Shown piece after piece: positions 8,301 through 26,900 of a stretch of 64,000 nucleotides of DNA. The notes beneath the pieces were generated by a model that had not been told where the DNA came from, searched no databases, and saw only the letters and a program-made list of their open reading frames with translations. Each line of letters opens with the position of its first letter. Positions within the stretch are counted from its first letter, which is position 1. The stretch is from Armatimonadota bacterium (GTDB taxonomy: Bacteria; Armatimonadota; HRBIN16). Position numbers and translations under genes: made by a program. Location of the stretch: contig OY781964.1 of NCBI GenBank assembly GCA_963677485.1, forward strand, positions 4,992,001-5,056,000, read 5' to 3'.

Positions 8301-8377
8301 ATTCAGGTTGTATGGTTCGGCGAGAGCAACCCACAAGTTTTTGGGACACTCGAGAGCTGAACCGAGCAGGAGAACAA

Positions 8378-8965: not shown

Positions 8966-9204
8966 AGATGAAGCTAAGAGATACAAGGTGTAGCACAAAA
9001 CCTAACTCTCACACCAACTGGATAGCCCTATCACAACGCATCTGCACGGCGACAGAGATACTCGCCACTGGCATGATGCGCCATAAACTCCGGTGTCAGG
9101 CTGTGAAGAGAGGTGAATCACGCCACTCAGTAGAAAAACTTGATGTTTTCGCAAATTCATGCGTGAATGCAACAAACCGGATCCGAAGGGAGAGAAAACA
9201 ATGA
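8956..9204 (+). CDS. Small hypothetical protein
   Basis: 82-aa ORF overlapping the sigma stop. Confidence 0.35.
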   Translation: MGMKMKLRDTRCSTKPNSHTNWIALSQRICTATEILATGMMRHKLRCQAVKRGESRHSVEKLDVFANSCVNATNRIRRERKQ

Positions 9205-9350
9205 GTGCTTTTAGGAGAGGTCTGAAGGGCCAGTTTGAAACAGGGCTGGCTCAGCACGGCACTACAGTGTCCATGTCCTCCGGCTGCCCGTGTCCATCAA
9301 CATCAATATCACGAATGACGCATTTACAAACAACGGAGAAAAGATAACCT

Positions 9351-9857: not shown

Positions 9858-11515
9858 GCGGTAAGCCAGTCGATAAAAGAACAGCGAGTAGCAATACCTC
9901 TGTGGCCACACTGGGAAGAAGCAGCAAGAGCACAAGCAGCAAAACATCCATCAGGCCACCAGGCCCAGCACCTAAAGTGCGCTGCGCTGTCTACACCCGT
10001 AAGTCCACAGAGGAAGGCCTCGAGCAGGAGTTCAACAGCCTGGACGCCCAGCGCGAAGCGGGCACATCATACATCGCCAGTCAGAAACATGAAGGCTGGT
10101 ATTGCCTCGATCAGCTGTACGACGATGGTGGATTCTCAGGTGGTACCATGGACCGACCAGGGCTCGAACAGCTTCTGCGTGACATCGAGAACAACCGCAT
10201 CGACTGCGTGGTGGTCTACAAGGTAGACAGACTCTCACGCTCCCTACTCGACTTCTCAAAGATCATGGATGTGTTCGACCGGAACGGCGTCTCCTTTGTC
10301 TCAGTCACCCAGATGTTCAACACCAGCACATCCATGGGTAGACTGGTGCTTAACGTGCTGCTCAGCTTCGCGCAGTTCGAACGTGAGATCATCGGCGAAC
10401 GCATTCGTGACAAGATCGCGTCCTCCAAACAAAAAGGCCAGTATACGGGAGGCACTCCCCCACTTGGCTACAACGTCCATCCCGAAAAGACACAGCTCAT
10501 CGTAAACCCTGATGAGGCGATCACCGTGCAGACCATCTTCACACGCTACTGCGATACGAGTTCACCGCTTAGAGTAGCACTAGAGTTAAACGCGGCTGGC
10601 ATCACCACCAAAAGATGGGTCACCAAAGGTGGTATCCTGCATACCGGCCGGCCATGGGACAGAGGCCACATCTACCGCATCCTGCACAACCCGGTCTATG
10701 TCGGAAGAGTAAAGCACAGGGAGAACATATACCCCGGGGAGCATGAGGCGATCATCGAGGTTGATCTCTGGGACAGAGTGGTCGCCATGCTTAAAGAGAA
10801 TGCTCTACATGAAGAGGCGCAGAAGCGCTCTCTTGTTCCCTCTCTACTTAAGGGTATCATCAGCTGTGGTTACTGTAACAGGTCTATGTGCATGATCTCC
10901 ACAACGAAAGATGGAGCGAGGTTCAGATACTACAAATGTATCAAGGCGGTGAAGAGCGGATGCCAGGCCTGCAGCGTAGGAGCTGTTCCTGCCGGTGACA
11001 TCGAGGGGGCGGTGATCGCGCAGCTTCGTGCCGTCTTCAAGTCGCCAGAGATCGTGGCGAAGACCTTCCGATCGACCAGGGTGATTGAGACGAGTGAGAT
11101 AACCCGACTTGAAAGCGAGAAGGCGTGTCTGGAGCGGGGCATGAAGAGGCTGCAGGACAGTGCTGCCAAACTGATCAACGGTGACCTGTCCAGTAACGCA
11201 ACCAGCACGGAGGTGCTGCGTATCAACAGCGAGTTCATCCAGACGCAGCGCAGGCTTCAGGACACGAGCGAGGAGTTGTCCGAGATGCTGCTGGAGATGA
11301 CCACGGAGCAGAATGTGGCGAAGGCGCTTAGTGACCTTCACCCGATCTGGGATGAGCTCTACCCCTCTGAGCAGCACCGCATCATTCAGCTTCTTATTGA
11401 GCAGGTCACCATTAAGCTAGGTGGTATGGAGATACGCATGCGCACCGAGGGGGTTCACTCGCTGATCAGTGAGCTTCAGGAGACTGTAGACGCCAAGACA
11501 GAACGAAGTAGATAG
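9854..11515 (+). CDS. Large serine recombinase
   Basis: CAVYTRKS catalytic motif, SLDAQ, DRLSR, recombinase domain, Zn ribbon CGYC..YYKC..C, coiled coil. Confidence 0.95.
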   Translation: MSGKPVDKRTASSNTSVATLGRSSKSTSSKTSIRPPGPAPKVRCAVYTRKSTEEGLEQEFNSLDAQREAGTSYIASQKHEGWYCLDQLYDDGGFSGGTMDRPGLEQLLRDIENNRIDCVVVYKVDRLSRSLLDFSKIMDVFDRNGVSFVSVTQMFNTSTSMGRLVLNVLLSFAQFEREIIGERIRDKIASSKQKGQYTGGTPPLGYNVHPEKTQLIVNPDEAITVQTIFTRYCDTSSPLRVALELNAAGITTKRWVTKGGILHTGRPWDRGHIYRILHNPVYVGRVKHRENIYPGEHEAIIEVDLWDRVVAMLKENALHEEAQKRSLVPSLLKGIISCGYCNRSMCMISTTKDGARFRYYKCIKAVKSGCQACSVGAVPAGDIEGAVIAQLRAVFKSPEIVAKTFRSTRVIETSEITRLESEKACLERGMKRLQDSAAKLINGDLSSNATSTEVLRINSEFIQTQRRLQDTSEELSEMLLEMTTEQNVAKALSDLHPIWDELYPSEQHRIIQLLIEQVTIKLGGMEIRMRTEGVHSLISELQETVDAKTERSR

Positions 11516-11547
11516 GAGTAGATAGATATGAATAGGAGTAAACAGAT

Positions 11548-11961
11548 ATGAACAACGACGCATCTTATGACATCGATGATATCGGCATTGTGTTTACCGT
11601 ACCACTGGCGATAAAGCGCAGATCCGGTCGGAGGCAGGTGATCACGCCGCCTACCGGTGCCGGTGGTAAGGAGATCGTGCTGGCACACCAGGAGGCGATC
11701 GTGATCGCGATCGCCCGGGCGCACCGGTGGCGTAACCAGCTTGAGGACGGCACATATGAGTCTCTCACCGATCTGGCCACGCACATAAACCAGGATATCT
11801 CTTTCACCGCGAGGCTATTGCGACTCACGCAGCTTTCACCGCGAGTGATCGAGTCGATCTTCGCCGGCGAGGAGCCAGACGGTCTGTCACTCAATACGCT
11901 CACGAAGCTGTTACCTGTGATCTGGGAGGAGCAGGAGGCGGAGCTGGGGTTTCCGATGTAG
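11548..11961 (+). CDS. Recombinase-associated small HTH-like protein
   Basis: KRRSGRRQ...AIARAHRWRNQLEDG...RLLRLTQLSPRVIESI; typical third gene of DUF2924-recombinase modules. Confidence 0.75.
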   Translation: MNNDASYDIDDIGIVFTVPLAIKRRSGRRQVITPPTGAGGKEIVLAHQEAIVIAIARAHRWRNQLEDGTYESLTDLATHINQDISFTARLLRLTQLSPRVIESIFAGEEPDGLSLNTLTKLLPVIWEEQEAELGFPM

Positions 11962-12060
11962 GGTGCTGGTTCATTTTACTCTGGCTACAGGCCCGATCAT
12001 TGCAGGTATGTGCTGGTCGGGCCTTGTTGCGCGGATGTATGGCGAGTGGTCTGCATCGCT

Positions 12061-12111
12061 TGCGCACTCAGTGTGGCCACGGTGATGACTGCATGATTCC
12101 GCATTGACCCA
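12061..12111 (+). repeat. 51-bp direct repeat, partner at 14814-14864
   Basis: TGCGCACTCAGTGTGGCCACGGTGATGACTGCATGAT[T/C]CCGCATTGACCCA, one mismatch. Confidence 0.9.
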
Positions 12112-12212
12112 GCATCGGTAAATGGCAAGATGATAGAACTCGTCATCATACGTCGCTTTCGTCCTCATACAATATATCACCACAGGTCTCAGATCAACTT
12201 GCCCAACTGGCT

Positions 12213-12250
12213 AATTGCGCACTCGGAGATGGGCGGAGAAGGCTCTACTG
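12213..12250 (+). repeat. 38-bp junction motif, copy 1 of 4
   Basis: AATTGCGCACTCGGAGATGGGCGGAGAAGGCTCTACTG. Confidence 0.9.
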
Positions 12251-12297
12251 GGTGGGGCTGCAACTATGTCAGCCAGTGCAACACACCCATCGTCACA

Positions 12298-14031
12298 CTA
12301 CCCGTGCAGCCGCAAGCGCCAGTCGCCCTGCCAGGTTCTAGTAACCCCAAGCTGGTCGGTAAACCGCACATGCACATGCTTGCCGTCTGCCTTTGCGAAC
12401 TCCGCAGGAAGCTGCCAGGCATCCAGATAGTAGCTCCGGCCGTTTCGCAGTTTGATTTTCCAATCTGGCGACTTTTTGCCCTCCATCTCAATCCACACAG
12501 TAAGAGTGACGGGCTGATCATCAATGGCGGGCCAGGCGGCCCACAGCTCCAGCCAAGGCTTGCCCTTGAAGCTACGTAGTTTGCCCATGATGATAGGCTT
12601 CTGCTCGTATCGGTCGCCATCAGACTTATTCATTGCGATCACAGGCAGGTCGAACCAGCACCACTTGAATGGCCCTTCATGGATAGGATCTAAAGCACCA
12701 TATCGATGAGCGGATTTTACTATGTATTCAAGCACACCATGAGCGTTATATTTCCAATCTTTGGTGTAGTCTGCTCCTGGGGCTCCCGGTCTAGTATTCA
12801 GTTCAGAGGCCCACATCACATAGTTGTCGGCAGCGAATAGTGACATGCCTGTAAACAGTTCTATCTGCCAGCCAGGAAGCGGCCGGTCATTCTGTTGAAT
12901 ACCCTGAGTACCTTCATTGCAGATTCGCGTCCAGGCACCCACCTTTACATTGGATAGATAAGGCCGCCTGATGGTGCTGTCCGCGGGGTACTGGCCAGCG
13001 ATGCGGTGATGCATCAGGTAGAGCCTGATCGCCTGAACGTAGATGTCCTGCAGGCAATGCTCTGCCTCTCCAGGTTCCAGCGTCAGTGTATGGCCGTAGC
13101 ATTTCGTGGTGGTGAGATCACTAAACTCAGGAACACCTTGCTTTAGGATCAAGCGGCCATCTGAACCCCGTTTATAAAGCGGTTCGTTGCCCCATATAGC
13201 ACGCATATAACCATCGGTAGAAAGCACACCGTGGAACTCATTACATATCTTTAGGGTGGGGTCATTATCTCTCAAATAGTCTTTTTCAGGCAGCAGATAT
13301 TCGGGTAAACCCGACCCTCCCCAGCGTAAGGATGTGTAGAAGGCACCGACTTCAAAGGTGTATTGTCCATAGGTAATAGGGCAAACCCTGATGCCCGTCT
13401 CTTTCAACGCGGCTCTGGCGTAACCCTCATACAACCAACCGAAGCAGTCCCGCTGGTGCTCCCATCCGCCGGTGGCTTCGATGTCAAAGCACGGGTAGAG
13501 CACCCCTTTGCGTTTGTAGTCGGTGGGTTCCCTCTCGGCGTTCCAGGACAGTTCACCCAAGGTCAAGAAGGCCTCGCGGTTGTTGGAAAAGAGATGCTCT
13601 TTATGAAAAAGACGCAGGGCCGCAATACGGTCGTCTTTGGGGTTTTTCTGTTCCAGCTCATTGGCCAGCCTTTCAGCGTGTCCCCAGAAGAACGGGTCGC
13701 CCATCAGTTGGTGCTTCTGGGTATACGGCAGGTTCCGCACATCGGTGGGGGCAGTGCCAATGCGAAAGTTAGGCACCGCTTCCACGGAGGTGATGCCGCG
13801 CGTGAAATGCTGGTTATCGGCCCAAGTGTTATACCATGGCCCGGAGACATGAATATGGCGGTCACGCATACTAAACTTCGGGAATCTGGTGAATAATGCC
13901 ACACCCTGTGCGGTTTGCTCAGCGAAGGGATAGTCAATGCCGTATGGTGACGGCACTGTGCGGGTGGCAAACTTCAAATCGGGTGCCGATTGCGTCACCC
14001 ACGGTTGTCCTAAGTAATCTTTGCGAATCAT
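12298..14031 (-). CDS. Hypothetical cargo protein (577 aa)
   Basis: Long aromatic-rich ORF; no family recognised. Confidence 0.75.
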   Translation of the reverse strand: MIRKDYLGQPWVTQSAPDLKFATRTVPSPYGIDYPFAEQTAQGVALFTRFPKFSMRDRHIHVSGPWYNTWADNQHFTRGITSVEAVPNFRIGTAPTDVRNLPYTQKHQLMGDPFFWGHAERLANELEQKNPKDDRIAALRLFHKEHLFSNNREAFLTLGELSWNAEREPTDYKRKGVLYPCFDIEATGGWEHQRDCFGWLYEGYARAALKETGIRVCPITYGQYTFEVGAFYTSLRWGGSGLPEYLLPEKDYLRDNDPTLKICNEFHGVLSTDGYMRAIWGNEPLYKRGSDGRLILKQGVPEFSDLTTTKCYGHTLTLEPGEAEHCLQDIYVQAIRLYLMHHRIAGQYPADSTIRRPYLSNVKVGAWTRICNEGTQGIQQNDRPLPGWQIELFTGMSLFAADNYVMWASELNTRPGAPGADYTKDWKYNAHGVLEYIVKSAHRYGALDPIHEGPFKWCWFDLPVIAMNKSDGDRYEQKPIIMGKLRSFKGKPWLELWAAWPAIDDQPVTLTVWIEMEGKKSPDWKIKLRNGRSYYLDAWQLPAEFAKADGKHVHVRFTDQLGVTRTWQGDWRLRLHG

Positions 14032-14241
14032 ATCTCTGCTTCAACTCCCGTTTCTTTGTATTTAATGCAAGTAAACTGTGGTATCTGTAGCAATACGTAT
14101 TGCCGCTACCCTGAACCCTATAACGGCCTGACCAGAAATACACATACGATGAGTAGGACGAGTTAGGCGAGTAGGATGTTCCGGAGTGTCCTGTGACGAG
14201 TCTGGCGCCTACTGCTCTCCTGCTCTTCTATCTCCTCCCGC

Positions 14242-14468
14242 CTAACGCACCGTGATGCTGAGACCCCCAAGGTATAGGAAGTCACCACGGGTGATGTTGA
14301 CCCGATATACGCCTCGGCCATACTCCAGCTTCAAGCTGAACCGGTAGTTGCCGCCGCCCAGTGACTGCGGCTTTATCTTCGCACTGCCCACATAGTAGTT
14401 GCGAGAGTCAATGTAGTATTTCGCCTCAGCATCTGCAAACTGCACAGATACAAACAGCTCCGATGCGG
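14242..14468 (-). pseudogene. 3' gene fragment truncated by the IS remnant
   Basis: Protein-like frame (YYIDSRNYYVG...RFSLKLEY) whose 5' end runs into the IS terminus. Confidence 0.4.
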
Positions 14469-14805
14469 GTATCGCACCCGGTTGCACAGACACGGGTTAG
14501 TGTTAAGCAGCATTTGATGTGGAGTGCTCTTCAACAAAGCTCTGGCGGGTTTCAAGCGGCGTTTTGAATCCCATCTTCTCCAATCGCCATGAACGATTGT
14601 AAACTTGTTTGAAGTATATCACTGCTTCCCTCACGTCGTCAACGTTCTGAATCACATGTCTGCAAATGACCTGTTCATTTAGTGTCCGGTTGAACCGCTC
14701 CACCACTCCATTTGTCTGGGGCTGTTGCACGTAGCTGAATCTAGATGTGATCCCAGCCGCTTGATTTCATACTGGGATTGATCGTGTATCGGAGCAATTT
14801 GCGAA
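14469..14805 (-). mobile_element. IS481/IS3-like DDE transposase remnant with one terminal sequence
   Basis: Integrase core C-terminus QPQTNGVVERFNRTLNEQ...YN; downstream GTGTCTGTGCAACCGGGTGCGATAC resembles an IS end. Confidence 0.75.
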
Positions 14806-14813
14806 TCCGTTGC

Positions 14814-14864
14814 TGCGCACTCAGTGTGGCCACGGTGATGACTGCATGATCCCGCATTGACCCA
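14814..14864 (+). repeat. 51-bp direct repeat, partner at 12061-12111
   Basis: Direct sequence match. Confidence 0.9.
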
Positions 14865-15117
14865 CACTCGGTAGATGATATTCAGATAGCACCTGTCAAC
14901 TGATACACAGACTGGTCGGTATGCTGTCCGACACTTTTCAGATTTCGCCCGTATATATTAAGTGGAGGGTGTCACTATGCGACCTTGTATTTCTACTGAT
15001 GTCGCATGCACCGCGAACAGATGTGGACACTACATGCCACCACCATATTCAGTCCCGATATGATGCAACAAGAAGTCACTACTCAAACAATATGCGCAAC
15101 AACACAGGAGACAGTCC

Positions 15118-15858
15118 ATGATGTCACGAAATGAAACAGCACCAAACGCCAGCGAGGTTCTTCCTAAAGATTTGCTCAAGATTCTTCAAGGCTTCTGTTC
15201 TGGGGTTGTATACATTCCACCGAAACTGCTGCAGTCTCAAATCAGCAGAGAACAGATACGCGAATTACACGATAAAGGTATCACTCCTTCAGAGATCTCA
15301 CGCGAAACCACAATCTCCGTGAAGCATGTCCGGAGGATCATCAAACAAATAAGTGACGGTGTCATGCAAGAGCCGATCGACCGTCAGAAGATATATGGGG
15401 TGGTACCTGAAGATATTGTAGCGATGGTGCAGAGTTACGTGGAAGGTGTTTTGTATGTGCCACCAACTACGTCTTCAGTGGTACGGCGGTATTCGCGTGT
15501 AAAGAGGCTCCTTCGAGCAGGACACACCATTTTATCAGTCGCCAGTCTGACAGGGATGTCGACTCGTCGTGTCAGACAACTAAGGGACGAGTATGCGAGG
15601 GATGTCGCGCCTCCAAAGAAGGTAGTGGTACATAAGGATGTGCAGAATGGATCCTTCCAAAATATCGCCAATGAGGCTATGGGTCAAAGTCAGGATCCTG
15701 ATGAGATACCGCCAAGGCTCTGTCCGCTGTGTGGAACCCCGGTGGAACCGCATGAGAACACCTGCGTAGTATGCAGCAGACCAACCAAAGTTAAGGATGA
15801 TCCCGATGTCCTCGTTCTTAGCCATTTCCCATTCGCATACCTCGACCGTAAATTCTGA
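15118..15858 (+). CDS. Tandem CD3324/Mor-like HTH protein with C-terminal Zn ribbon
   Basis: Two units (VLPKDLLKILQGFCSGVVYIPP / VVPEDIVAMVQSYVEGVLYVPP) each followed by an HTH; CPLC...CVVC. Confidence 0.7.
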   Translation: MMSRNETAPNASEVLPKDLLKILQGFCSGVVYIPPKLLQSQISREQIRELHDKGITPSEISRETTISVKHVRRIIKQISDGVMQEPIDRQKIYGVVPEDIVAMVQSYVEGVLYVPPTTSSVVRRYSRVKRLLRAGHTILSVASLTGMSTRRVRQLRDEYARDVAPPKKVVVHKDVQNGSFQNIANEAMGQSQDPDEIPPRLCPLCGTPVEPHENTCVVCSRPTKVKDDPDVLVLSHFPFAYLDRKF

Positions 15859-16579
15859 CATGATGCTAATCCCCAGTTGCTAATCTCCGCAACACGGCTG
15901 CATCAACTGCACATCCGTGTGCACAATTTCAATACCCTGCAAATCATGATTCAGAAAGTGAAATTTTAAGTAAACAAATGTCCCTGTTTTTGGCATGTAG
16001 GATGCCAGATTGCATTTAGGCTGCAGGCCCGATTATCACAGACGCACGGTGGTCGGGTCTTGTTGCGCAGATGTGGGCGAGTAGTATGCAACGTCGCATC
16101 GTGTCTAGATGCAGAATTGATTCTGAATGCATCGCTTGTGCACTCCGTGTGGTCACAGTGATCGCGAAGGCAACACGAGGTAACTCATAACCTCCGTAAT
16201 CCGCAAGATTTCATCACTGAACTCACGTAGACGTCAGTAACAACTGAGGCTTGCGCTCTTGTTGCGAACTTGAATCGCATCTTTACGCATGTTGCAAATC
16301 CACGTACAAATCCGCGCAACACTGTTGCATAAACTGTGCATCAACTACACATCATGTACACATCCGTGTACACAAATTCAAAACACTGCAAAAACACGAT
16401 TCAGAAAGTGAAATTTTAAGTAAACAAATGTCCTTGTTTTTGACAGGCTTTTGCGGGTTTTAGGCAGAAATCCGCATCACTCTTTCCAAGATATGGGTGG
16501 TCTTCATGGTAGTGAAATGACCCATTTCGTGCTCAGAACGGTGTTTTTGGAGTCTTTTTGGGACAGAAACGGGGAGGTT

Positions 16580-16615
16580 AATTGCGCACTCGGAGATGGG
16601 GGGAGAAGGCTGTAC
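16580..16615 (+). repeat. Junction motif, copy 2 of 4
   Basis: AATTGCGCACTCGGAGATGGGGGGAGAAGGCTGTAC. Confidence 0.9.
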
Positions 16616-16621
16616 ATCCCT

Positions 16622-17338
16622 ATGGACACCTCGATAATCCGCCAGATCATTGGCCTGCCAGACCTGACTACCCCTGAGCTCCAGGAACTCTGGAAGACCT
16701 TAAACGGTAAAGAGCCGCCAGCCTTCTCACGCCTCTACCTCATCAAGAGGTTGGCCTACCGAATGCAGGAGATCGCTTTCGGCGGCTTGTCTACTTGCTC
16801 TATACAGCTCATGGATGAGATACTCGAATCATACGGATTCGACCGATACGGTCGTCTTGGTCCTAGACCGGTGAAGACTAGGAAGCGCACAGACGAAATA
16901 CATGACAGGCCGAACAAGACAATCATAAACAGCGATGCATCCACCATTACCGATGATATCGGCATCGTGGTTCATGTGCCCCTTACACTTAAACGCCGTT
17001 CCGGTCATACGCAGTTGGTGAGGCCAGCTACCGATGCCGATGATATAAACTTCCGACTGGCGCACCAGGAAGCGATCGTGATCGCCATCTCTCGTGCACA
17101 CCGGTGGCGTGACCAGCTTGAAGACGGAACCTACGACACCCTTTCTGCATTGGCCAAGCAGATATTTCAGGATATCTCCTTCACCTCAAGGCTGCTTAGG
17201 CTATCGCTGCTCTCGCCTCGGGTTATCGAGTCGATCCTTACAAGCCGGGAGCCGGACGGTCTGTCGCTACATGCGCTCACGAAGCTGCTACCAATGATAT
17301 GGGTGGATCAGGAGGCAGAGCTGGGATTCCCTATGTAG
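16622..17338 (+). CDS. DUF2924 N-half fused in frame to the recombinase-associated small protein (copy B)
   Basis: N-part matches 9351 ORF, C-part matches 11548 ORF; recombinase absent. Confidence 0.8.
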   Translation: MDTSIIRQIIGLPDLTTPELQELWKTLNGKEPPAFSRLYLIKRLAYRMQEIAFGGLSTCSIQLMDEILESYGFDRYGRLGPRPVKTRKRTDEIHDRPNKTIINSDASTITDDIGIVVHVPLTLKRRSGHTQLVRPATDADDINFRLAHQEAIVIAISRAHRWRDQLEDGTYDTLSALAKQIFQDISFTSRLLRLSLLSPRVIESILTSREPDGLSLHALTKLLPMIWVDQEAELGFPM

Positions 17339-17503
17339 GGAGGCACACGAGCCCGGTATTTAGGCTACAGGCCCGATCGATCGCTGGTATGTGATGGTCG
17401 GGCTTGCTTGCGCGAATGTGGGGCGAGTGGCGGCATCGTTCGGGCACTCCGCCTTCAAATCACAATTACATCACATGTCTACATATCATCTTGCATACCC
17501 GTC

Positions 17504-17541
17504 AATTGTGCACTCGGAGATGGGGGGAGATGGCTGTACTG
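17504..17541 (+). repeat. Junction motif, copy 3 of 4
   Basis: AATTGTGCACTCGGAGATGGGGGGAGATGGCTGTACTG. Confidence 0.9.
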
Positions 17542-17619
17542 CCACCATGAATGCATTCTGGACCAGCTTGCCTTCGCTGTTTATATCCTTGATCTTTATC
17601 CGCTTAACCCGATCTTCGA

Positions 17620-17886
17620 TCAGTCATAGATTTTGCTTCTGTGGCCTACAGCAAGAACCAGCACTACCACCTTATCGTCTTCTATGCGGCACAAAATCCG
17701 GTAGTCCCCGACGCGATAACGCCAGAGTCCCGACAAATCCGCAAGCAAAGGCTTTCCAAAGCGGCGAGGGTCTTCTTCAGTGTTAATACGCTCACGCAGA
17801 TAGCTGATGATGTTCTTTCGGGCCTGCGGATCAAGCTTGCGCGCATCACGTATGGCCCGCTCATCCCACTCAATCGTCCACGCCAA
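17620..17886 (-). CDS. relE: RelE/StbE family toxin
   Basis: DPRRFGKPL...LWRYRVGDYRILC...VLAVGHRSKIY. Confidence 0.93.
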   Translation of the reverse strand: MAWTIEWDERAIRDARKLDPQARKNIISYLRERINTEEDPRRFGKPLLADLSGLWRYRVGDYRILCRIEDDKVVVLVLAVGHRSKIYD

Positions 17887-18091
17887 GCTCTATCTCCGCT
17901 TCATTCATTGTCAGTCTTTTTCCGGGCTTTTCCAGCCGTTCTATCGCAATGTAGGTATCTTCCATATCGTCTATCAGCCGCAGGATCGCTTCTCTGGCGT
18001 AATAAGTCTTTGTCCGCCCTGTGCGTTTGGCTAGAGCTGTAAGTCTGTCGTCAATTTCGGCAGGGAGCCTAATGGCCATCATACTTTTCAT
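17870..18091 (-). CDS. relB: RelB/StbD-like ribbon-helix-helix antitoxin
   Basis: AIRLPAEIDDRLTALAKRTGRTKTYYAREAI; overlaps the toxin start. Confidence 0.88.
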   Translation of the reverse strand: MKSMMAIRLPAEIDDRLTALAKRTGRTKTYYAREAILRLIDDMEDTYIAIERLEKPGKRLTMNEAEIELGVDD

Positions 18092-18110
18092 TTTGGTTGA
18101 ACCTCCTGTT

Positions 18111-18152
18111 TGATATACATGTATATCATACCGCGAATACTACATAAGTCAA
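18111..18152 (-). promoter_or_regulatory. TA promoter and operator
   Basis: Perfect 18-bp palindrome TGATATACATGTATATCA (18111-18128) overlapping TTGACT-N16-TATGAT; palindrome repeated at 23029-23046. Confidence 0.7.
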
Positions 18153-18544
18153 TCCCGAAGATCATTTGATCGTCTTATTAAAATGATCTGTTAAATCGAC
18201 CGACCGTTGATTCTCGCCATTCGGCCTTGCCTGATTGGGAGCTATCGTGAAGTTAGAACACTCAAAAACCTAAATTGCCGGCATAATTCGACATTTACGG
18301 CACATTAGGCTTCTCTCTGCAAGAATCGACTAGTAAGAAAACAGGTCAAAACACCCCGTTTCGTGCTCAAAGTGTCTGTTTGGACTTTTCTCTATTCGTC
18401 CATAGGAAACAGAGAATAACGTGCAATAAAGAGACAAAACAGCTGAAAACGAGCCACACATGCCAAATGGCTCGTCCAAAACTATAGAGGCCGTAAATCG
18501 GCCGATAATGGGGATTGTGAGCACGTTATTAGTGCGTAAATGAG

Positions 18545-18578
18545 GAAAAGCCTAGAGCATACATTATCTAGGCTTTTC
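18545..18578. terminator. Hairpin beside the decayed tmRNA end
   Basis: GAAAAGCCTAGA...TCTAGGCTTTTC; counterpart at 23465-23498. Confidence 0.5.
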
Positions 18579-18605
18579 TCGAAGGTTGTAACGTTTATTA
18601 GTTAT

Positions 18606-18642
18606 TGGTGGAGCGTGAGGGATCTAAACTCTCATCCATGAT
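18606..18642 (-). other. Decayed copy of tmRNA 3' end (att-like)
   Basis: 27 of 37 positions match 23526-23562, including terminal CTCCACCA. Confidence 0.75.
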
Positions 18643-18935
18643 CGATGCAATTCGCATATCTTCGTTATCATTCTTATTGTTATTGTTAATAATAAATTCT
18701 CTCGTAACCATGTTCACATCTTGACTGTGAATTTCAGTACCGTGACTGCCATAGTCACCTCAGTAAATATAGTATCAGATACATGGGAATACGGTGATGA
18801 TAGCATGAATCAGAGAACACGTGGTTCAGGTAACGTAGTGGTATGCCTCATATGGCACTTGCTTATACATTCATTCGGGATAATCCGTATTTATCGCGAT
18901 TCTACAGAAATGAAAGTACATCGCGTTCGAACAGC

Positions 18936-19916
18936 TCAGACTCCGATCCGTAGTAAGATCTGCTCTGTGATGTTCTTGAAGTCGATGAAGCATTTAGTTA
19001 CAGCCACTGCATGGGCACCGATCGCGCCATCAGCGGGTGTCAATTTAAAGATCGGCTTACGCGCATCTTCAGCTAGCGGCATCAGGCTCTGATAGTTCTT
19101 GATCAATCCAATTCGGTTTGGATCCTTGTCAGGGTCATCAGCATACTGCGTTTCTTGCAATACATCATTCGCGTATACTTTCGGTATTTTGGATATCCAT
19201 CGTTGATAGGCTTTGACCGGTCGGCTTCTACGTTCTACATGTTGCATAACTACATATCCTGCAGGCTTCATGTCCCCTGCAGGCATAGGAATATCCATAT
19301 CCGAAGGCTTAGCGAGTAGTCGCTTGTGCCAATTCTCTCGCCATGTGTGCAAAGTTGGGCCCAAATTCCGAAGGCCCTGTAATGAGAAAAGACCTGGCGA
19401 GAGCGGCATCACAACGTAATCGGCTGCAATAAGTGAAGCACGGTTAATCGCACCCAGATTGGGTCCCACGTCCATCAGTATGATGTCTGCGTTAATCGAT
19501 TCACTCGCATAATGGATGATGCGATGAAATGCAGTGATGACCCGGAAAGCGGATTTATCACCATCCAGGCAGCGTGGCCAACTATCTGAAAGTTTGTCTT
19601 CAAACTGCGATAAACCTAGATCCCCGGGTAAAAGATGGATCTGAGGTTGAATCTGTTGCAGGGGTGCATTCGCGATATCTCCCAATCCATCGATGATCGG
19701 AGAGATGCAGGAAAGGATACTCTGGTGATGGCCATCCTCTGGCCAAATCATTTCCAAGGTTTCCTCGTCAAGAAACATAGTGGTTAGGTTCGCCTGCGGA
19801 TCAAGGTCTACTGCTAACACGCGTAGGCCGAGTTCAGCGCACATCCATGCCACATGATACACCATTGTTGTTTTGCCAACACCACTTTTATTATTAAAGA
19901 ACGTGATAGTTTTCAT
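18936..19916 (-). CDS. ParA/Soj-like ATPase
   Basis: FNNKSGVGKTT, VDLDPQANLT, DVGPNLGAINR. Confidence 0.9.
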   Translation of the reverse strand: MKTITFFNNKSGVGKTTMVYHVAWMCAELGLRVLAVDLDPQANLTTMFLDEETLEMIWPEDGHHQSILSCISPIIDGLGDIANAPLQQIQPQIHLLPGDLGLSQFEDKLSDSWPRCLDGDKSAFRVITAFHRIIHYASESINADIILMDVGPNLGAINRASLIAADYVVMPLSPGLFSLQGLRNLGPTLHTWRENWHKRLLAKPSDMDIPMPAGDMKPAGYVVMQHVERRSRPVKAYQRWISKIPKVYANDVLQETQYADDPDKDPNRIGLIKNYQSLMPLAEDARKPIFKLTPADGAIGAHAVAVTKCFIDFKNITEQILLRIGV

Positions 19917-21103
19917 GGAGCAACCTCCCTGATCGTGGCCAGGAAATACGCCGGTTCATCAATCGTGAACTCAGCAGGTGGGTTGCCGTTTTCGCGCAGA
20001 AATCGCTGGGTACGGGAAATACCGCGGCCAAAAGTATTCACATACCCGAGTATTTTCATGGCCTCGGCTATCTTGGGGTTCCGATAGTCGTTCTGATCGG
20101 GGAAAGTCGTCGAGGTCACTGCGCCGTAGAGTCCTCCTGCGTTTTGTATCTCGATGCGATCACGAAACCAGTAGAACCGAATAGGGGCATTGGACTGGTA
20201 GTCACGATGCATCACAGCGTTCATCAACAACTCTCGTATGCCCATCATGGGGTAAGGGGTGCGGCTAACTTCCGTAAGAGGAGAAATGGTCTCAGGTTGT
20301 GATGGAAATAGTGTTTTTAGGAAGTTATCGAGCTCACGGAGTACCGATATTAAATCCCCTTCAAAGCGCCTTTCATCCAGCACATCGGTGTCAAGAGCTT
20401 CCCCCTGGAACCGCACATATTGAATGGCTGCTCCCGGAAACCAGTTCGACGGTTCTTGCCCAAATAGTATAGCACCCGCATTAGTAGCGCACTCATCGGC
20501 AGAGCACCAGAACCCCAGCGACGCCATCTGTGTGAGCATATCCCGGTGGTTCTCTTGAAGGATCTCAGGTGCAATTGCTGCATTCCGATATGTGAGTTGG
20601 AATAGATCCAACACCAGATCATCACGCCCACATCCCCTGCACGGTCTGAGGTCAAACGTGCGTGCATGAGATGCTCTTTTTTCTGTCAGGATACGCTCTT
20701 CCTGTTCATTGGCGATCGCCTTTCGGGGGCCTCGGCGTATCCATACGCGTCCACGAAAACGTATGGGCGGCATATCGGAAGGAAGAACCTCTACTACAGC
20801 CACATCCCCTTCTGGCAATGATAGTTTATCAACCATGATGGTTGGTAGCGGAACTATCTGTCCTGAATCTGCGTAACTTGACAGCTGTTGCAACAATCTA
20901 TCGCTAACGTCCACACCCTCAATGGTGCCATTGTCTCGCGCGCCAATCACTAAAAACCCTGGAGAATTACTGCCCGGCATATCATTAGCGAACGCGCATA
21001 TGGCTTCACATATTTTGTCCGTATTTGATGTCGAAAGAGTTCGTTCCATCCGGGCCGATTCAACATCGGCTAGCAGTTGTCTCAGTTCCTGTTCGTTGAT
21101 CAT
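19913..21103 (-). CDS. AlbA_2 (Schlafen-like) domain protein with RecG-C/HATPase_c_4-type domain
   Basis: ICAFAND..GFLVIG..DNG; RELLMNAVMHRDY; RNPKIAEAM...FGRGI. Confidence 0.85.
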   Translation of the reverse strand: MINEQELRQLLADVESARMERTLSTSNTDKICEAICAFANDMPGSNSPGFLVIGARDNGTIEGVDVSDRLLQQLSSYADSGQIVPLPTIMVDKLSLPEGDVAVVEVLPSDMPPIRFRGRVWIRRGPRKAIANEQEERILTEKRASHARTFDLRPCRGCGRDDLVLDLFQLTYRNAAIAPEILQENHRDMLTQMASLGFWCSADECATNAGAILFGQEPSNWFPGAAIQYVRFQGEALDTDVLDERRFEGDLISVLRELDNFLKTLFPSQPETISPLTEVSRTPYPMMGIRELLMNAVMHRDYQSNAPIRFYWFRDRIEIQNAGGLYGAVTSTTFPDQNDYRNPKIAEAMKILGYVNTFGRGISRTQRFLRENGNPPAEFTIDEPAYFLATIREVAP

Positions 21104-21399
21104 CTTGGTTCCTCACCTTCAGCAATGAGCCAGTCGAAACACTAGTTTAGCTCACCGCACCCCGAATTGCTCAGAGCCTATTGTCCAATTATGGCCGTAT
21201 GCATACGCATTGATAACGATGAGCATCGTGTGCACTAAGCTCCGTCACGGCTGGCATATTACTGTGTGAGGTCTCTTATTGAACGGTTGCTCATCGGACA
21301 CCTCTACCTGGCAGTAAGTTGCCTGCTCTACATAGATTACTGTACTTTATATTCGCAATTTCCGCCGTAGTATAAGCACTCGTTTCGCCCTTTATCCAG

Positions 21400-21800
21400 C
21401 CTCCATCGAATTTTCGATGGACACTTTCGGGATATTCCATCAATTTCTAACGAGTTTCAGATCCATGATTCCCATTGTTTCATGCTCACTACACCCCGCA
21501 TCTTACGCCATTCAGTGGTCAACCCTGCTAGTCTCCATCGAAATTTCGACATTCAGGTTTTGTGGTTCATCCAGAAAAGCTCGCATACGTTAAGAGACCA
21601 TTCATAGCTAAGCCGAGAAGGAGGACCAAAGCTCATCGTCAGCTGTTTCGAGGCTTTGAGTAGCTACCTGATATAGCTCATCCCACGGTGAACCAATGAG
21701 CAGAGGGTGATCCGCGCCACTCTTCTGAGACACTTGATGTTTCCGAGAATTCATGGGTGAATGCAACAAGCCGCCACCGAAGGGAGAAAAGATAATGAGC
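21400..21800 (+). repeat. Deleted copy of 8150-8432 joined to 9110-9210
   Basis: Retains both palindromes, a decayed sigma gene start and the CTTG-N18 motif; sigma body missing. Confidence 0.8.
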
Positions 21801-21866
21801 ACACCAGTATGTGAAAGGGTCGACACCGGAAATGCACAGTCTACGAACAAAGGAGAAAGATACCCT

Positions 21867-22583
21867 ATGGACACTTCGATAATCCGCCAGATCATTGGCC
21901 TGCCAGACCTGACTACCCCTGAGCTCCAGGAACTCTGGAAGACCATAAACGGTAAAGAGACGCCAGCCTTTTCACGTCTCTACCTCATCAAGAGGTTGGC
22001 CTACCGAATGCAGGAGATCGCTTTCGGCGGCTTGTCTACTTGCTCTATACAGCTCATGGATGAGATACTCGAATCATACGGATTCGACCGATACGGTCGT
22101 CTTGGCCCTAGACCGGTGAAGACTAGGAAGCGCACAGACGAAATACATGACAGGCCGAACAAGACAATCATAAACAGCGATGCATCCACCATTACCGATG
22201 ATATCGGCATCGTGGTTCATGTGCCCCTTACACTTAAACGCCGTTCCGGTCATACGCAGTTAGTGGGGCCAGCTACCGATGCCGATGATCTAAATTTCCG
22301 ACTGGCGCACCAGGAGGCGATCGTGATCGCCATCTCTCGTGCACACCGGTGGCGTGACCAGCTTGAAGACGGAACCTACGACACCCTTTCTGCATTGGCC
22401 AAGCAGATATTTCAGGATATCTCCTTCACCTCAAGGCTGCTAAGGTTATCGCTGCTATCGCCTCGGGTTATCGAGTCGATCCTTACAAGCCAGGAGCCGG
22501 ATGGTCTGTCGCTTCACGCTCTCACGAAGCTGCTACCAATGATATGGGTGGATCAGGAGGCAGAGCTGGGATTCCCTATGTAG
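21867..22583 (+). CDS. DUF2924 N-half fusion protein (copy C)
   Basis: Near-identical to 16622-17338; AGGAGA RBS. Confidence 0.82.
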   Translation: MDTSIIRQIIGLPDLTTPELQELWKTINGKETPAFSRLYLIKRLAYRMQEIAFGGLSTCSIQLMDEILESYGFDRYGRLGPRPVKTRKRTDEIHDRPNKTIINSDASTITDDIGIVVHVPLTLKRRSGHTQLVGPATDADDLNFRLAHQEAIVIAISRAHRWRDQLEDGTYDTLSALAKQIFQDISFTSRLLRLSLLSPRVIESILTSQEPDGLSLHALTKLLPMIWVDQEAELGFPM

Positions 22584-22747
22584 GAAGGCACACGAGCCCG
22601 GTATTCGAGCTAAAGGCCCGATCATCGCATATGCGTGATGGTCGGGCCTGCTTGCGCGAATGTGGGGTGATTGGCGGCATCGTTCGCGCACTCCGCCTTC
22701 AATCACAATTACATCATATGTCTACATATCATCTTGCACAGCCAGGC

Positions 22748-22785
22748 AATTGCGTACTCGGAGATGGGGGGAGATGGCTCTACTG
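22748..22785 (+). repeat. Junction motif, copy 4 of 4
   Basis: AATTGCGTACTCGGAGATGGGGGGAGATGGCTCTACTG. Confidence 0.9.
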
Positions 22786-22787
22786 GA

Positions 22788-23009
22788 TCAATCGTCCACG
22801 CCAAGCTCTATCTCCGCTTCATTCATTGTCAGTCTTTTTCCGGGCTTTTCCAGCCGTTCTATCGCAATGTAGGTATCTTCCATATCGTCTATCAGCCGCA
22901 GGATCGCCTCTCTGGCGTAATAGGTCTTTGTCCGCCCTGTGCGTTTGGCTAGAGCTGTAAGTCTGTCGTCTATTTCGGCAGGGAGCCTAATGGCCATCAT
23001 GCTTTTCAT
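22788..23009 (-). CDS. relB: Orphan RelB-like antitoxin (toxin deleted)
   Basis: Protein identical to 17870-18091; only the first 17 nt of relE remain. Confidence 0.85.
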   Translation of the reverse strand: MKSMMAIRLPAEIDDRLTALAKRTGRTKTYYAREAILRLIDDMEDTYIAIERLEKPGKRLTMNEAEIELGVDD

Positions 23010-23525
23010 TTTGGTTGAACCTCCTGTTTGATATACATGTATATCATATCACGAATACTACAAAGGTCAATCCCAAAGCTCATTTTAATCGTCTTTTCAA
23101 ATGATCTGTATAATCGACCGACCGTTGATTCTCGCCATTCAGCACTGACGGTTTGGGAACTATAATGAAGTTAGCACACTCAAAAACCTAAATTGCCGGC
23201 GGTTTTTGACATTTACGCCACATTAGGCTTCTTTCTCTGTCGAAATGGGCTAGTTAGAAAACAGGTCATAACACCCCATTTCGTGCTCAAATGGTCTGTT
23301 TGGACTTTTCTCTATTCGTCTATAGGAAACAGAGAATAACGTGCAACAAAGAGACATAATATCTGAAAACGAGCCGCACATGCCATATGGCTAGTCCAAA
23401 ACTACAGAGGGCATGAATCGGCCGATTATGGGGCTAGTGAGCACGTTTTTAGTGCGTAAATGAGGAAAAGCCCAGATCATACATTATCTAGGCTTTTCTC
23501 GAAAATTGCAACGTTTATTTGTTGC

Positions 23526-23877
23526 TGGTGGAGGCGGAGGGACTCGAACCCTCGTCCAAGATGGGTTATATTAGGAGTCTACGAGTGTATCCGACAATTA
23601 TCTCTTATGTCGCACATGCCCATCGGCAGGCTTATTACGACACCAGTCCACCCTGAATTTCGCCATCAACGCGGTGAGCACTCAATGAAGGCTATTCGGC
23701 ATAATACACGCCCGAGGATCCACACGGCCGAAAGGTGTGGCTCGGACGGCTGCCTATTTAGGCAGCGAGAGCGTAATTGTTATTGGCTCTTATTGTTTTT
23801 GCCGCTTTTAACGAGGCCAGCGGCACCTCGACTCGCATCCGTAACACGCCCGCACCCTGTCAACACCACTCGCCCCC
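23526..23877 (-). ncRNA. ssrA: tmRNA
   Basis: Acceptor stem GGGGGCG/CGCCTCC-ACCA with G3:U pair, T-arm GGTTCGAGTCC, tag ANNNYALAA* at 23787-23758. Confidence 0.97.
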
Positions 23878-23990
23878 ATTTGGGAAAGCGGCACCAGTGC
23901 TTTGCTGTTGCCGGTATCTTATTATAGACGTTTGCGACCCTAAATAGCAAGGGGGCATCCAAGATACAACCGGCACCCCCAATCACTGAT

Positions 23991-26900
23991 CTATTCCATT
24001 CCGAAATCGAGCTTTAGATCGGTCACATTGCGCAGCTTCTCCACCCATATCCACCAGGCCTCCTTGCCGTTCCATGTGCCCGACCTATCGAGTCTCACGG
24101 TAGCGCCGTTCGGCTTCTTGCCTGTGTTCACGATGCGCTGAGCGGTTGATTGGTCGAACGGTCCAAGCCGAATGGCCAGTGACGGTATCGGACGGTCACT
24201 CGTCAGAGACAGTTGCCCCGGTCTCGCGAACTGGTACCCCACACGAGCCTTGGCCAGACCATCGGCACTGGGCACCAGCGTAAAGAAGTTTTGTATCTGA
24301 ATTCCCTTCAACGGCGCCGGCACCCTGGGCATGATCTTCACCAGTTTTGGATCAGCATCATCCACTCCCGCACACAGTTCCAAAGCATGCATGGCTGGAC
24401 CCTGGTTGGCTCCGTTAGACAGGTCACCGATTCTGTACCAGCGACCATCCGGCATGATGTTTGTTCCCTCAGGGATAATCCACAGGTTGGGCCGCCAATC
24501 TATCCCCCGCTTCGCATCCACATAGTCCATGTTCTTGTCATATGAGTATTTCGCCAGATTCGCCAGCAGACGCCCGGCGTTGTCCATATCGTCAAGTATC
24601 AATGCTGACTCGGTGATCCAACCCTGTCCGTAGCCCATACCCAACACAGGAGCATACCCGTATGGCTGGTTCAACTGACGCTTAAGAGTATTCCGCGTGA
24701 TCGGGGTCATCTCCGTATCCAGTTTGTTCGGGTCAAGACCGTCATAGTAGACCGAGAACCACGCCTGAACCAGTGAGTCCTGCAGACTGGGCAGCACACT
24801 GAAGGGACTGACCCGCCACATCAGATTGGTGCTGTCGCCCGTCTTCAATAACCGCAGCATACCCACACGGATGCGCTCAGCGTAAGCCAGCCACCTCTTG
24901 GCCGATGCTCGGTCACCTGCGGCTTCCGCCATTTGCGCGGAACACCTCAACGCGGTGAAGCAGGCGAAATTCGGATATGGTTCATACATATCAGCATTCG
25001 CATAGTTCTCTCGGATCTTTCCCATGTCGGTTTCGGCCATGATGTTCTTCCGAGTGAGCGTCTCCCCCCCACCCCAGCCGGTGGTCTCGCCTTCACTCCA
25101 TATCACGTCACGACCGGTGTAGTCCATAAACCAGCAGATAAACTCGGCACTGTCACGCGTGGCGTCCCAACGTGACTTGCAATAGACATCGGCACGAGGC
25201 TGCATCAGCCAGTCACCGGATGGCGCACCCATCAGCCGCCAGGCAATCCAGCGACCAACAATCGTCGCGCCGTGACCGTCCATCTCCTCGGTGCCCGAAA
25301 TCTCGTTCAGGTTGATGCTCATCGTGGCGTTGACCCCAAACGACCAATGAGGTGGCGCATCCTTCGGATACTTGGACACATCGAGTGCGGAGTTCTCAGG
25401 ACCCTTATCCGGGTCGTGATTCGGCCTATAGAAATACAGATATTTATCGCAGAAGTCCACGAAGTTCGCGGTCCGCATCGGGTCATTAATGCAGCGCATG
25501 GCCAATGTCGCATACGCTTCCGCACAGCGTCCATAGGCACCTCCGTAGTAGATGCCCAGCGGTCCCCAGGTGCCTACGCCGTTGTAGCCTCCATACCACG
25601 GAGATGTCTTGCTGGTTTCCATAAAGACGCCCGTGTTGCGGTCGAACTCTCCATCCATTTGTATCAGGTTTGCGACCCATATGTTCGAGAGCATGTCGCC
25701 GAGTATGCCACCCGTGAAGCGCACCCGGCTGGCATCTAGTGACTTGGGGAAGTCGATTAGCTCCACCTTCTTTGGGATATCAGCGTCACTGGTATAGAGC
25801 ACTTTGGATAGTGCCTTCAAATCAGCTGACCAGTTACCCGGGCTCGCGGATTTCACTCTGGGAGCCGCGTCATCCGCTGACAACACAACCTTGCCGAAGG
25901 GAATCAATTCCCCAGAAGGCTTATCGCTGGCTAATGTCACAGCTGATATAAGGGGTCGGCCTCGAAGATCGGGGTTGTCGTGGATTACGATAGACTTTAT
26001 CTTACCAGCCCGAGGCTTCACAGCGAGGTAGTAGTGGGAATGCCGGTTCTCTAGTGCCACACTCGGCTCATCGTCCTCACGTATTCGCAACGCCTTTCTC
26101 AAAACAGACATATATTCCGGCCGCGATGTAAACGGCTCCCTGACTGATGCGGCGACTCCATGGGTTGGACCGCCAGCCCATCCGGCGATGAACCATGCGG
26201 TGGCTCCAATAATGACTGGTATCCGGTCGCTCTTGCCGTCTGTGTAGCATATCTCGATCTCACCTATACGCGATCCGATCTGCACTTGATCATTGCGTTT
26301 AGTGCGCAGCTCAGGGTGTTCACCCCAGTGTGCCACTCCGTAATCCCAACCTTCATTAATCATTCCCAGAAAATAGATGGCAGATGCGGCGGATCCTACA
26401 GGGATACTCTCGTCAGATGCTGATATCAAACGGGTAGTTGATCCGCGGCTGTCTAGAGAAGCAGCTAGAAATGGCATCGAACGACTGAATATCACATCGG
26501 CATTCCTGTCAATCTTCAAGCCATACAGGTCGGAACGCGTGACCGCATGATCTACCACAGGCTGCACCTGGCTGTAGTCTGCAAAGGCTAACCAGGCAAA
26601 TCCACCGGCTCGAATGCCAGGGTTGTTGTCGACGACTTCCAGGTAGACCTTGCGGCCGATAATGTCTTGGGTAATCCACTTCATCGGAGCGAGCTTGTTC
26701 CCGCCGGGCGTATGGGCTTTGCGTAAAACTGCGCCATCAGGGTAGGATTTGAGATAAACGAAGTTGCGATCCCCTCCGTTGTTAGCCTCAGCATTGCCAT
26801 CCCAGCCCCCCAGGGTAAACTTTTGCAGCCGCGTCCTGATGGTAAACGGATCTGACCGCAATACTCCTAGATTTGCCTCACCCTTGTCAAGCGAGTTTAC

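Follow-up and report, generated by a model that had tools for sequence, protein, structure and literature searches.

The recombinase module and its tail

The 64,000-nt window analysed here (contig OY781964.1 of assembly GCA_963677485.1, positions 4,992,001 to 5,056,000; coordinates below are those of the window unless a contig is named) comes from the single-contig, 5.22-Mb genome of an Armatimonadota bacterium and carries an array of islands beside the transfer-messenger RNA (tmRNA) gene ssrA. Within it lie an intact large serine recombinase (LSR) module (module A), two related modules that lack the LSR (B and C), and four copies of a short sequence, hereafter the site, which is the subject of this analysis. 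The site is discrete, rare and linked to the module, with sharp one-sided junctions in several genomes; the elements themselves are serine-recombinase islands at tmRNA or tRNA genes, of a known kind, with an unusual one-sided site.

As read from its sequence, module A consists of a sigma-like gene followed by genes for a DUF2924 protein, the LSR and a ParB-like 137-aa protein (small137), with the site as the outermost ~40 nt of its non-coding tail. The sigma-70-like gene (8312-8965, +; 217 aa) lies upstream of the core module and is conserved in 8 of 16 relatives' loci. The first core gene (9351-9857, +) encodes the 168-aa DUF2924 protein (PF11149, E 4.6e-41), a family that PMC11342252 links to the RAMA DNA-binding domain, which it is said to match in part; our literature search found few papers that mention DUF2924 and none that treats this module. 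The 553-aa LSR (9854-11515, +; sequence ..AVYTRKSTEEGL..) has, in the order typical of its class, an N-terminal Resolvase catalytic domain (PF00239, E 2.3e-38), a Recombinase domain (PF07508, E 5.9e-16) and a zinc beta-ribbon (PF13408, E 5.2e-11). Among solved structures its best match is the catalytic domain of the TP901-1 integrase (E 4.9e-27), and its best NCBIfam match is CcrB, at 193 bits far under the 900-bit cut-off of that family. The open reading frame (ORF) is intact and is the sole Resolvase-domain gene of the whole genome; none of the genome's 6 tyrosine integrases lies in the window, the nearest PF00589 match being ~284 kb away.

The last module gene, small137 (11548-11961, +), belongs to no Pfam family. 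The top Foldseek matches of its helical part, modelled at a mean pLDDT of 74.5, are all ParB/Noc/KorB/SopB-type DNA-binding domains, at E 0.16 or worse, and from sequence and model both small137 and the DUF2924 protein look like DNA binders. A PDB sequence search with these two proteins gave nothing useful, and no relatives of small137 were found in the viral_contigs collection. In one relative (G342, L038:163-1902, +) the LSR and small137 are encoded as a single 580-aa ORF, suggesting that the two proteins act together.

The non-coding tail of module A (11962-12208, +) is made up of a hairpin (11977-12049), which was not called by the terminator scan, a repeat segment (12052-12145) and a stretch that runs up to the site. 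The tails of A, B and C are alike, each with 200-290 nt of non-coding sequence in which a hairpin and a variable stretch precede the site, and three of the five site copies in this genome end such a tail 200-290 nt past small137 or past a fusion ORF that contains it.

Sequence and rarity of the site

An earlier note on this DNA had described a 36-38 bp sequence occurring four times in the same orientation. Scanning the window with a degenerate 36-mer returned just these four, at 12213, 16580, 17504 and 22748, all on the plus strand and with 0 mismatches to the pattern, against a mean of 0.00 matches in 100 dinucleotide-preserving shuffles of the window. The length given in that note was too short, since the alignment of all instances delimits a conserved site of ~39-43 nt that is composed of a weak GGYT on the left, AATTGYGYACTCGGAGATGGGSGGAGAWGGCT, four variable bases and a right-hand TGG; the TGG is present in three of the four window copies and in most copies elsewhere. 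Inspection by eye of the interior shows two direct GGAGAWGG boxes 10 nt apart, and a ATCACARTTACATC box, like the site itself and the palindrome described below, is a candidate protein target. No dyad symmetry or internal inverted repeat was found in the site, either on reading the sequence or in a window inverted-repeat search, and pattern scans of window and genome found no inverted partner copy.

Copy A (12209-12251, +) has the composition GGCT + 36-mer + TGG and closes the tail of the intact module A. Copy II (16576-16615, +), which is without the TGG, is preceded by a different left context (16307-16575, +), here called type II, that is common to the relative G001 and the metagenome contig L015; a protein-coding reading of this context was rejected by eye on account of a 1-nt indel between the window and G001 that shifts the frame. 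Copies B (17500-17541, +) and C (22744-22786, +) close the tails of the LSR-less modules B and C, respectively.

A search of the whole genome with the 24-nt core, allowing up to 2 mismatches, recovered the same four window copies and none on the reverse strand. A profile built from 8 instances added a fifth, diverged and solitary copy at G000:C1:3881402-3881443 (-) (E 1.9e-8), whose likeness to the window copies is confined to the 39-44 nt of the site. This copy (locus L054, 9403-9444) lies in an intergenic gap within a ~3.3-kb stretch of unannotated ORFs that is absent from G001, between flanks that are conserved there; there is neither a module nor a tRNA gene close by, and 5 kb off is a transposase gene of the IS110 family. 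The finding by which the earlier note would have been overturned, a terminal repeat of a known insertion sequence (IS) scattered over the genome, was thus not made: the genome holds five copies, and the junctions in relatives are tied to the site. An IS terminal repeat was rejected on these five copies, the single orientation of the four in the window, the lack of an inverted partner, and BLAST searches of plasmid and phage collections, in which the site matched nothing beyond E = 1.

Wider motif scans yielded few further copies. In genome_contigs three stretches were found, two belonging to the record of G001 and one in L013, where the core alone matches, which was put down to chance; in metagenome_contigs there was one real contig (L015), and five stretches in viral_contigs were all judged to be chance, as were a match in G006 (3 mismatches) and a second match in G001 (5 mismatches). 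A resemblance of the site to the tmRNA 3' end was, by eye, not above chance, and a motif-like stretch seen by eye beside the tmRNA terminator in L037 was unsupported by the profile search and was left unused.

Junctions at the right edge of the site

In all four window copies the left side of the site is constant and the right flank different. Copy A ends 47 nt past the stop codon of a 577-aa ORF (12298-14031, -). At 16580, 6 nt separate the end of the copy from the ATG (16622) of fusion ORF B, and the copy replaces the ribosome-binding site (RBS) that is present in module C, where the homologous place, the start of the fusion ORF, has an ordinary RBS and no site copy. Copy B is followed by 78 nt and then by the stop of a ParE/RelE-family toxin gene (17620-17886, -), and copy C by the 4 nt TGGA and then by the stop of a ribbon-helix-helix (RHH) antitoxin gene (22788-23009, -), the toxin gene being absent. 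These flanks agree with those listed in the earlier note, in which the last two genes had been labelled relE and relB; they belong to a ParE/RelE-family toxin and to RHH antitoxins.

The sharp breaks of homology that the note had reported are also seen. Modules B and C are alike on the left and through the site and diverge 2-4 nt past ..TAC, and the 16580 copy diverges from the start of C 0-2 nt past ..TAC, so that each copy with a comparison partner breaks ~0-4 nt from the right edge of the site. At the two junctions where the parental partner sequence can be inspected it carries no copy of the site, and therefore homologous exchange within the site cannot explain these two junctions.

Among the relatives, the sample comprised 61 genomes including this one, most of them from the same genus and family and the rest from the phylum; G001, of the same genus, is the only one of the others with real site copies. 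It has three, all in the type II context and all with a constant left and a unique right side. Two of them are the inner ends of an 842-bp repeat whose inverted copies (96.8% identical) flank 11.6 kb of cargo, and the two diverge right at the site end. The repeat (L008 7446-8289 and an inverted copy across contig ends) begins at a tRNA-Pro(GGG) gene, and the cargo includes an AbiEii-like ATPase with RloB. By eye, a second tRNA-Pro copy in G001 is without the anticodon arm; upstream of tRNA-Pro, at L008 1291-7379, five ORFs of 299-452 aa follow one another, short repeats lying where they meet, and the one that was scanned had no Pfam match. In the metagenome contig L015 the type II context leads into the site, beyond which the sequence differs again. 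Three unrelated left-unit forms are seen in the genus (module tail, type II and that of the fifth copy), sharing just the 40 nt.

A more distant set of copies comes from G337, which belongs to another family of the same phylum. Its LSR is ~60% identical, and its site, AATTGTG..GCGCTTTGCCGAGATGGNNGGAGAAGAC.GATTTGG, is diverged and alignable. The G337-type pattern gave 7 matches against 0 for the reversed control, with 0 in the other 27 genomes of G337's family, and BLAST found an eighth copy. All eight share a 165-320-nt left unit and have eight different right flanks, with the break after ..ATTTGG or 1-2 nt before. In three cases the small137 of a complete module lies upstream of the copy, at distances of 0.4, 2.1 and 2.8 kb, and in two of these three the right flank is a second module cut at its 5' end, at about LSR codon 30 (C64) or deep in the LSR (C100). 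Three G337 contigs (C80, C91 and C102) also have an extra 155-aa Resolvase-domain ORF just upstream of DUF2924, with an in-frame stop in two of them; it recalls the small DsiA recombinase of Dehalococcoides islands. More broadly, of 401 genomes sampled from the phylum 42 have small137, frequently as multiple copies and together with DUF2924 and the LSR; a profile search and a regular expression gave no site homologues downstream of small137 in relatives beyond the genus and G337.

Alternative junctions, which the earlier note had suggested looking for, were sought in Logan contigs of other metagenome runs that cover part of the stretch, aligned to 8000-24000 at 90% likeness; such contigs show presence only and drop rare forms. 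Three further joints at the site edge were obtained, at low depth. In run X3, 12251 + C is joined to 18694 (the module A site followed by the ParA region) and 22783 + CGAT to 17746 (a C-type site followed by a truncated toxin gene), and in run X1, from a lake, 12244 + GTTTGGA is joined to 9081 (the site followed by the module start region, a tandem or circular form). The toxin gene thus forms a nested series at the site, intact in B, truncated in run X3 and gone in C, and the right flank is a 5'-truncated or promoter-less module in four cases, namely window B, X1, and C64 and C100 of G337. Taken together, the pattern of constant left side, unique right side and break within ~4 nt of one edge recurs, in events independent of one another, in four or more genomes or populations.

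LSR-less modules and the candidate left-end palindrome

Module C (21400-22786) matches module A in four blocks (8151-8430, 9107-9205, 9325-9571 and 11574-12069) at ~72-79% identity, and module B (16618-17541) is 95% identical to C. In both, the LSR is absent and the N-terminal half of DUF2924 is in frame with small137, giving fusion ORF B (16622-17338, +) and the same fusion in C (21867-22583, +; start possibly at 21753). Between the two fusion ORFs there are 14 synonymous and 5 non-synonymous differences, and on the resulting pN/pS of 0.11 they look functional and selected rather than decayed debris.

The left limit of the A-C homology is a palindrome, CCTCCATCGAAATTTCGATGAAC, at 8151-8173, with a second copy at 21400-21422 that forms the left limit of module C. 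Its sequence is CCTCCATCGAAWTTTCGATGGA, perfect or near-perfect, of the form TCCATCGAA-WTT-TTCGATGGA, and it starts exactly where the likeness of A and C begins (8151 and 21400). G001 (joined coordinate 18962) has the left flank of C and the palindrome and not the sequence beyond, a three-way junction. Elsewhere in the genome, with up to 3 mismatches, only two half-palindromes were found, ~130 nt further in near 8283 and 21533; none of the relatives' loci has an equivalent within the flanks examined, and no target duplication was found at the two module copies. This palindrome possibly serves as the unit's left end, or as an operator to which the ParB-like protein binds, and it is unrelated in sequence to the site.

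The island array at the tmRNA gene

The array is anchored by the tmRNA gene (23526-23877, -), identified by Rfam; at the gathering threshold the only Rfam matches in the window are this tmRNA, the SRP RNA and one tRNA. A stretch of 776 bp on the tmRNA 3' side (22788-23562), which includes the last 37 nt of the gene, recurs at 17870-18642 with 89.8% identity, and its end, 18606-18642, is a degenerate repeat of those 37 nt (27/37 identical by eye) that marks the boundary between two islands. Since the tmRNA-side stretch and the 3' end are repeated in this way, we read 18643-23562 as a single island that inserted at ssrA next to a related, older one; only one such repeat of the tmRNA 3' end was found in the window. 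The arrangement is that of an ssrA island array, in which islands follow one another downstream of ssrA and repeats of the ssrA 3' end form their boundaries. Modules B and C, without the LSR, face ssrA or its repeat at a distance of 0.9-1.3 kb, and the intact module A has no ssrA repeat nearby. Relatives of the module are convergent to the tmRNA gene at 0.3-3 kb in five other genomes (G229, G271, G021, G203 and G297), and further relatives sit near tRNA genes in several genomes.

The RHH antitoxin gene is present on both repeats, as copy 1 at 17870-18091 (-) and as copy 2 after site copy C, and the toxin gene follows site copy B. Between 18936 and 21103 (-) the tmRNA-proximal island carries genes for a ParA-like ATPase and a Schlafen/AlbA_2 protein. 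Defence-type genes are carried by many of the tmRNA-associated islands seen here, as in this pair of ParA and Schlafen-type genes and in the AbiEii-like ATPase and RloB of G001. The 577-aa cargo ORF has no family match; it has no cover in the lake run X1 and is skipped in the X3 contig. The same runs differ from the window in other ways: X1 has a single-island form (18241->23160), lacks the Schlafen-type gene and joins small137 directly to the hairpin and type II context (11966->16024), and X3 has a joint 12038->14815 by which site copy A and the 577-aa gene are skipped.

A segment of the module tail (35-94 nt) occurs three times, at 12052-12145, 14805-14898 and 16128-16162, and these copies bracket genes for a 66-aa protein and a 246-aa helix-turn-helix (HTH) protein, the latter at 15118-15858 (+) between the second and third copies. 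Together with the X3 joint 12038->14815, the recurring segment looks like a second, homology-based layer of rearrangement.

Comparison with described systems

The closest described system is that of the ssrA islands of Dehalococcoides, whose integration module includes DsiB, a CcrB-like serine integrase (PMC3146451); this paper was also the nearest one in our search of the literature on serine recombinases, cassettes, tandem or direct repeats and tmRNA. The shared features are tandem islands downstream of a single tmRNA gene, the coexistence of islands that have a working module with islands that lack one, a ParB-type protein in the module, and a sharp discontinuity between module and cargo. 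The Dehalococcoides module, with its ~540-aa serine recombinase, sits on the strand opposite ssrA close to the ssrA-proximal edge; here modules B and C face ssrA or its repeat in a comparable way and have no LSR. There are also differences. The boundary repeat of the Dehalococcoides islands is the last 20 bp of ssrA, whereas the recurrent site here, 40 nt long and unrelated to ssrA, is found 0.7-1.1 kb from the ssrA repeat or at a great distance from it; the module here has DUF2924 and the 137-aa protein, and this genome has no second small serine recombinase of the DsiA type; and the intact module A is not next to ssrA.

Three other systems each share part of the behaviour, and in each case at least one defining feature is lacking here. 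The staphylococcal cassette chromosome (SCC, with CcrAB or CcrC) is brought to mind by the sub-threshold CcrB match of the LSR. The target of SCC is a single, defined site within the 3' end of a conserved gene, and both partners carry the repeat; its composites, like our array, consist of elements in tandem, some of which have no recombinase genes, with direct repeats of the short integration-site sequence between them. PMC3146451 also speaks of these elements. The partner DNA in our case is unrelated, unlike that of SCC, and each site copy has a different sequence after it.

In integron attI/attC arrays each unit closes 3' with a conserved site, the crossover is at its outer edge and a platform recombinase lies beside the first site, and such arrays are comparable to our islands in their one-sided behaviour and in the variable DNA beyond the site. 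However, there is no tyrosine IntI here, the site lacks hairpin symmetry, the units are not single promoter-less ORFs, and several junctions read as deletions into neighbouring genes; an integron was rejected because the window has no PF00589 match and no attC-like hairpin fold. Serine transposons (the IS607 family, and Tn4451 and Tn5397 with TnpX and TndX) have asymmetric ends, sub-terminal repeats and little target specificity, and nested deletions anchored at an element end are known as adjacent deletions at transposon ends. In contrast to these transposons, the candidate left-end palindrome is unrelated to the site, there are few copies per genome, and the module has two extra, putative DNA-binding proteins.

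Proposed mechanism and alternatives

The reading that we prefer is that the site is a cis-acting end at which the LSR, with its two DNA-binding partners, would exchange strands, producing one-sided captures and nested deletions, a proposal that we see as evenly poised between right and wrong. In this scheme the two partners would bind the tandem GGAGAWGG boxes, and boxes further in, and position the LSR, which would exchange strands just 3' of ..GGCT-NNNN-TGG. The products would be one-sided because only the site's side of the reaction would be defined by sequence: either foreign DNA would be joined to the right edge of the site, or a deletion would run rightward over a variable distance, reaching, for instance, the toxin gene or the 5' portion of the module that follows. 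Such islands would accumulate beside the tmRNA gene, and LSR-less derivatives such as B and C would retain the site. The action of the LSR at the site, the exact cut position and the split between captures and deletions are all points that we infer from the arrangement of the DNA.

The junction pattern fits an enzyme acting at the right edge of the site, which is favoured because random breaks followed by selection should spread wider. For such an enzyme the LSR is the obvious candidate, since it is linked in cis to the site in two distant genomes, with the site diverged along with the LSR, since it is the only serine recombinase in this genome, and since its two neighbours look like DNA binders. 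The toxin series and the four truncated-module right flanks read best as site-anchored deletions in tandem arrays; the alternative presence of the 577-aa gene or the ParA region after the site of module A could be due to captures or to deletions. The earlier note had inferred a recombination site or element end, and the anchoring of junctions is borne out in the window, in G001, in L015, in the Logan contigs and in 8/8 G337 copies. Its cassette-array-like structure would be more aptly termed a tandem island array at the tmRNA gene, and much of the pattern reads as site-anchored deletion and not as capture of cassettes.

Several observations weigh against this proposal. The partner DNA at the six junctions compared has no common sequence, and the absence of dyad symmetry, of an inverted partner and of such a common partner sequence is unlike classical LSR attP/attB pairs. 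A classical att site (~40-50 bp with an imperfect dyad around a central dinucleotide) was indeed rejected, as the site has two direct boxes and the break is at its edge and not its centre, and so was an att pair with a shared crossover dinucleotide and half-site, the six partners being without a common motif and the TGG belonging to the constant side. The break position scatters over 0-4 nt, and a serine recombinase cuts at one fixed dinucleotide. G001 has no small137, DUF2924 or LSR near its copies, and its single Resolvase-domain ORF is ~1.7 Mb away; five of the eight G337 copies, on four contigs, are without a small137 match. The X1 and X3 junctions are single contigs each, with depths of 2.8-6.6 at 90% likeness and possible mixing of strains, and so are leads and not proof, and in the near-identical runs X20 and X21 (0.94-0.95 of sampled words) the contigs break off at the repeats, and no alternative joint is seen at the site. 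The tmRNA-proximal island, moreover, is bounded by the tmRNA 3'-end repeat and not by the site, so the integration site of the LSR may be in ssrA and the motif may have another role; insertion of islands at ssrA must use a site other than the motif.

That last point leads to an explanation in which the site is an internal functional element of islands that target tmRNA or tRNA genes, for example bound by the ParB-like or DUF2924 protein for regulation, segregation or control of excision, with the LSR recombining at the tmRNA 3' end and the junctions arising by illegitimate or short-homology recombination, filtered by selection for the module and its last functional element. The end of the tmRNA-proximal island at the 37-nt repeat suits this explanation, as do the module relatives convergent to tmRNA genes in the five genomes named above and those near tRNA genes, an arrangement that matches the Dehalococcoides ssrA islands (PMC3146451); the two direct boxes, as read from the sequence, resemble a protein-binding array, and the scatter of 0-4 nt is also in its favour. 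We nevertheless consider it rather improbable, as every comparable junction (two window comparisons, three run-contig junctions, G001, L015 and G337) lies within ~4 nt of the edge when selected random breaks should spread further, and orphan copies persist without the module in G001 and G337. Those orphans could instead speak for the site closing a short repeat (165-840 nt) that is non-autonomous and is moved by another enzyme, or serves as a landing pad for other elements, with the LSR module as one context of several. The existence in the genus of three unrelated left-unit forms, the spacing of 115 nt between two units in G337 C41 and the start of the G001 repeat at a tRNA-Pro gene point the same way, but no transposase or second recombinase is consistently nearby (none near the G001 copies by Pfam on 10 ORFs, and no tyrosine integrase in the window), there is neither an inverted terminal partner nor a target duplication at the two module copies, and the same type of site follows small137 in two distant genomes; this we hold to be unlikely.

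An RNA-based reading, in which the unit encodes an RNA with its 3' end at the site and the variable DNA beyond acts as a guide or a target-derived part, like the right-end RNAs of TnpB elements, fits the topology, in that a recombinase element terminates in a scaffold-like unit of 165-320 nt that is constant and has unique sequence after it. It is very improbable all the same: 11900-17650 has no Rfam match at E up to 1, fold z-scores of -1.0 to +1.5 on both strands are no better than those of shuffles, the alignment of the eight G337 copies gives -12 kcal/mol with a covariation term of +0.5 and a lone long-range helix that is broken in C100, which keeps the site, the three left contexts share only the 40 nt, and the hairpin, with no call from the terminator scan, lies after small137 and upstream of the site. 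With no structured conserved RNA showing covariation, a guide-RNA scaffold of the TnpB/IscB or bridge-RNA type was rejected.

A stronger form of the proposed LSR mechanism would make this an undescribed one-sided system in which the LSR, a RAMA-like (DUF2924) and a ParB-like protein join an asymmetric 40-nt end to near-arbitrary DNA, the island swapping and shedding the cargo beside its module, including by deletion of the toxin gene and decapitation of rival modules, while LSR-less derivatives keep a selected DUF2924::ParB-like fusion with which they parasitise or regulate the reaction; we put this forward as possible and still doubtful. LSRs are valued as precise two-site integrases, and one-ended action on undefined partner DNA with two helpers would, if true, widen the enzyme class and offer a mechanism for the sharp boundaries between module and cargo in tmRNA-associated islands. 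On a more modest reading the site is a practical marker for locating island ends, and the three-gene module is a defined unit built around DUF2924, a family little mentioned in the literature searched.

Neighbouring genes

Directly left of module A, at 4816-7944 (+), there is a 1042-aa ORF with ATP-dependent DNA ligase domains and a C-terminal AAA ATPase, an unusual architecture; it is possibly defence-related cargo. Beyond the tmRNA gene, two adjoining ORFs of ~1060 aa (23991-27176, -, and ~27343-29999), which have no Pfam match, are paralogues with 74% DNA identity over 2.66 kb.

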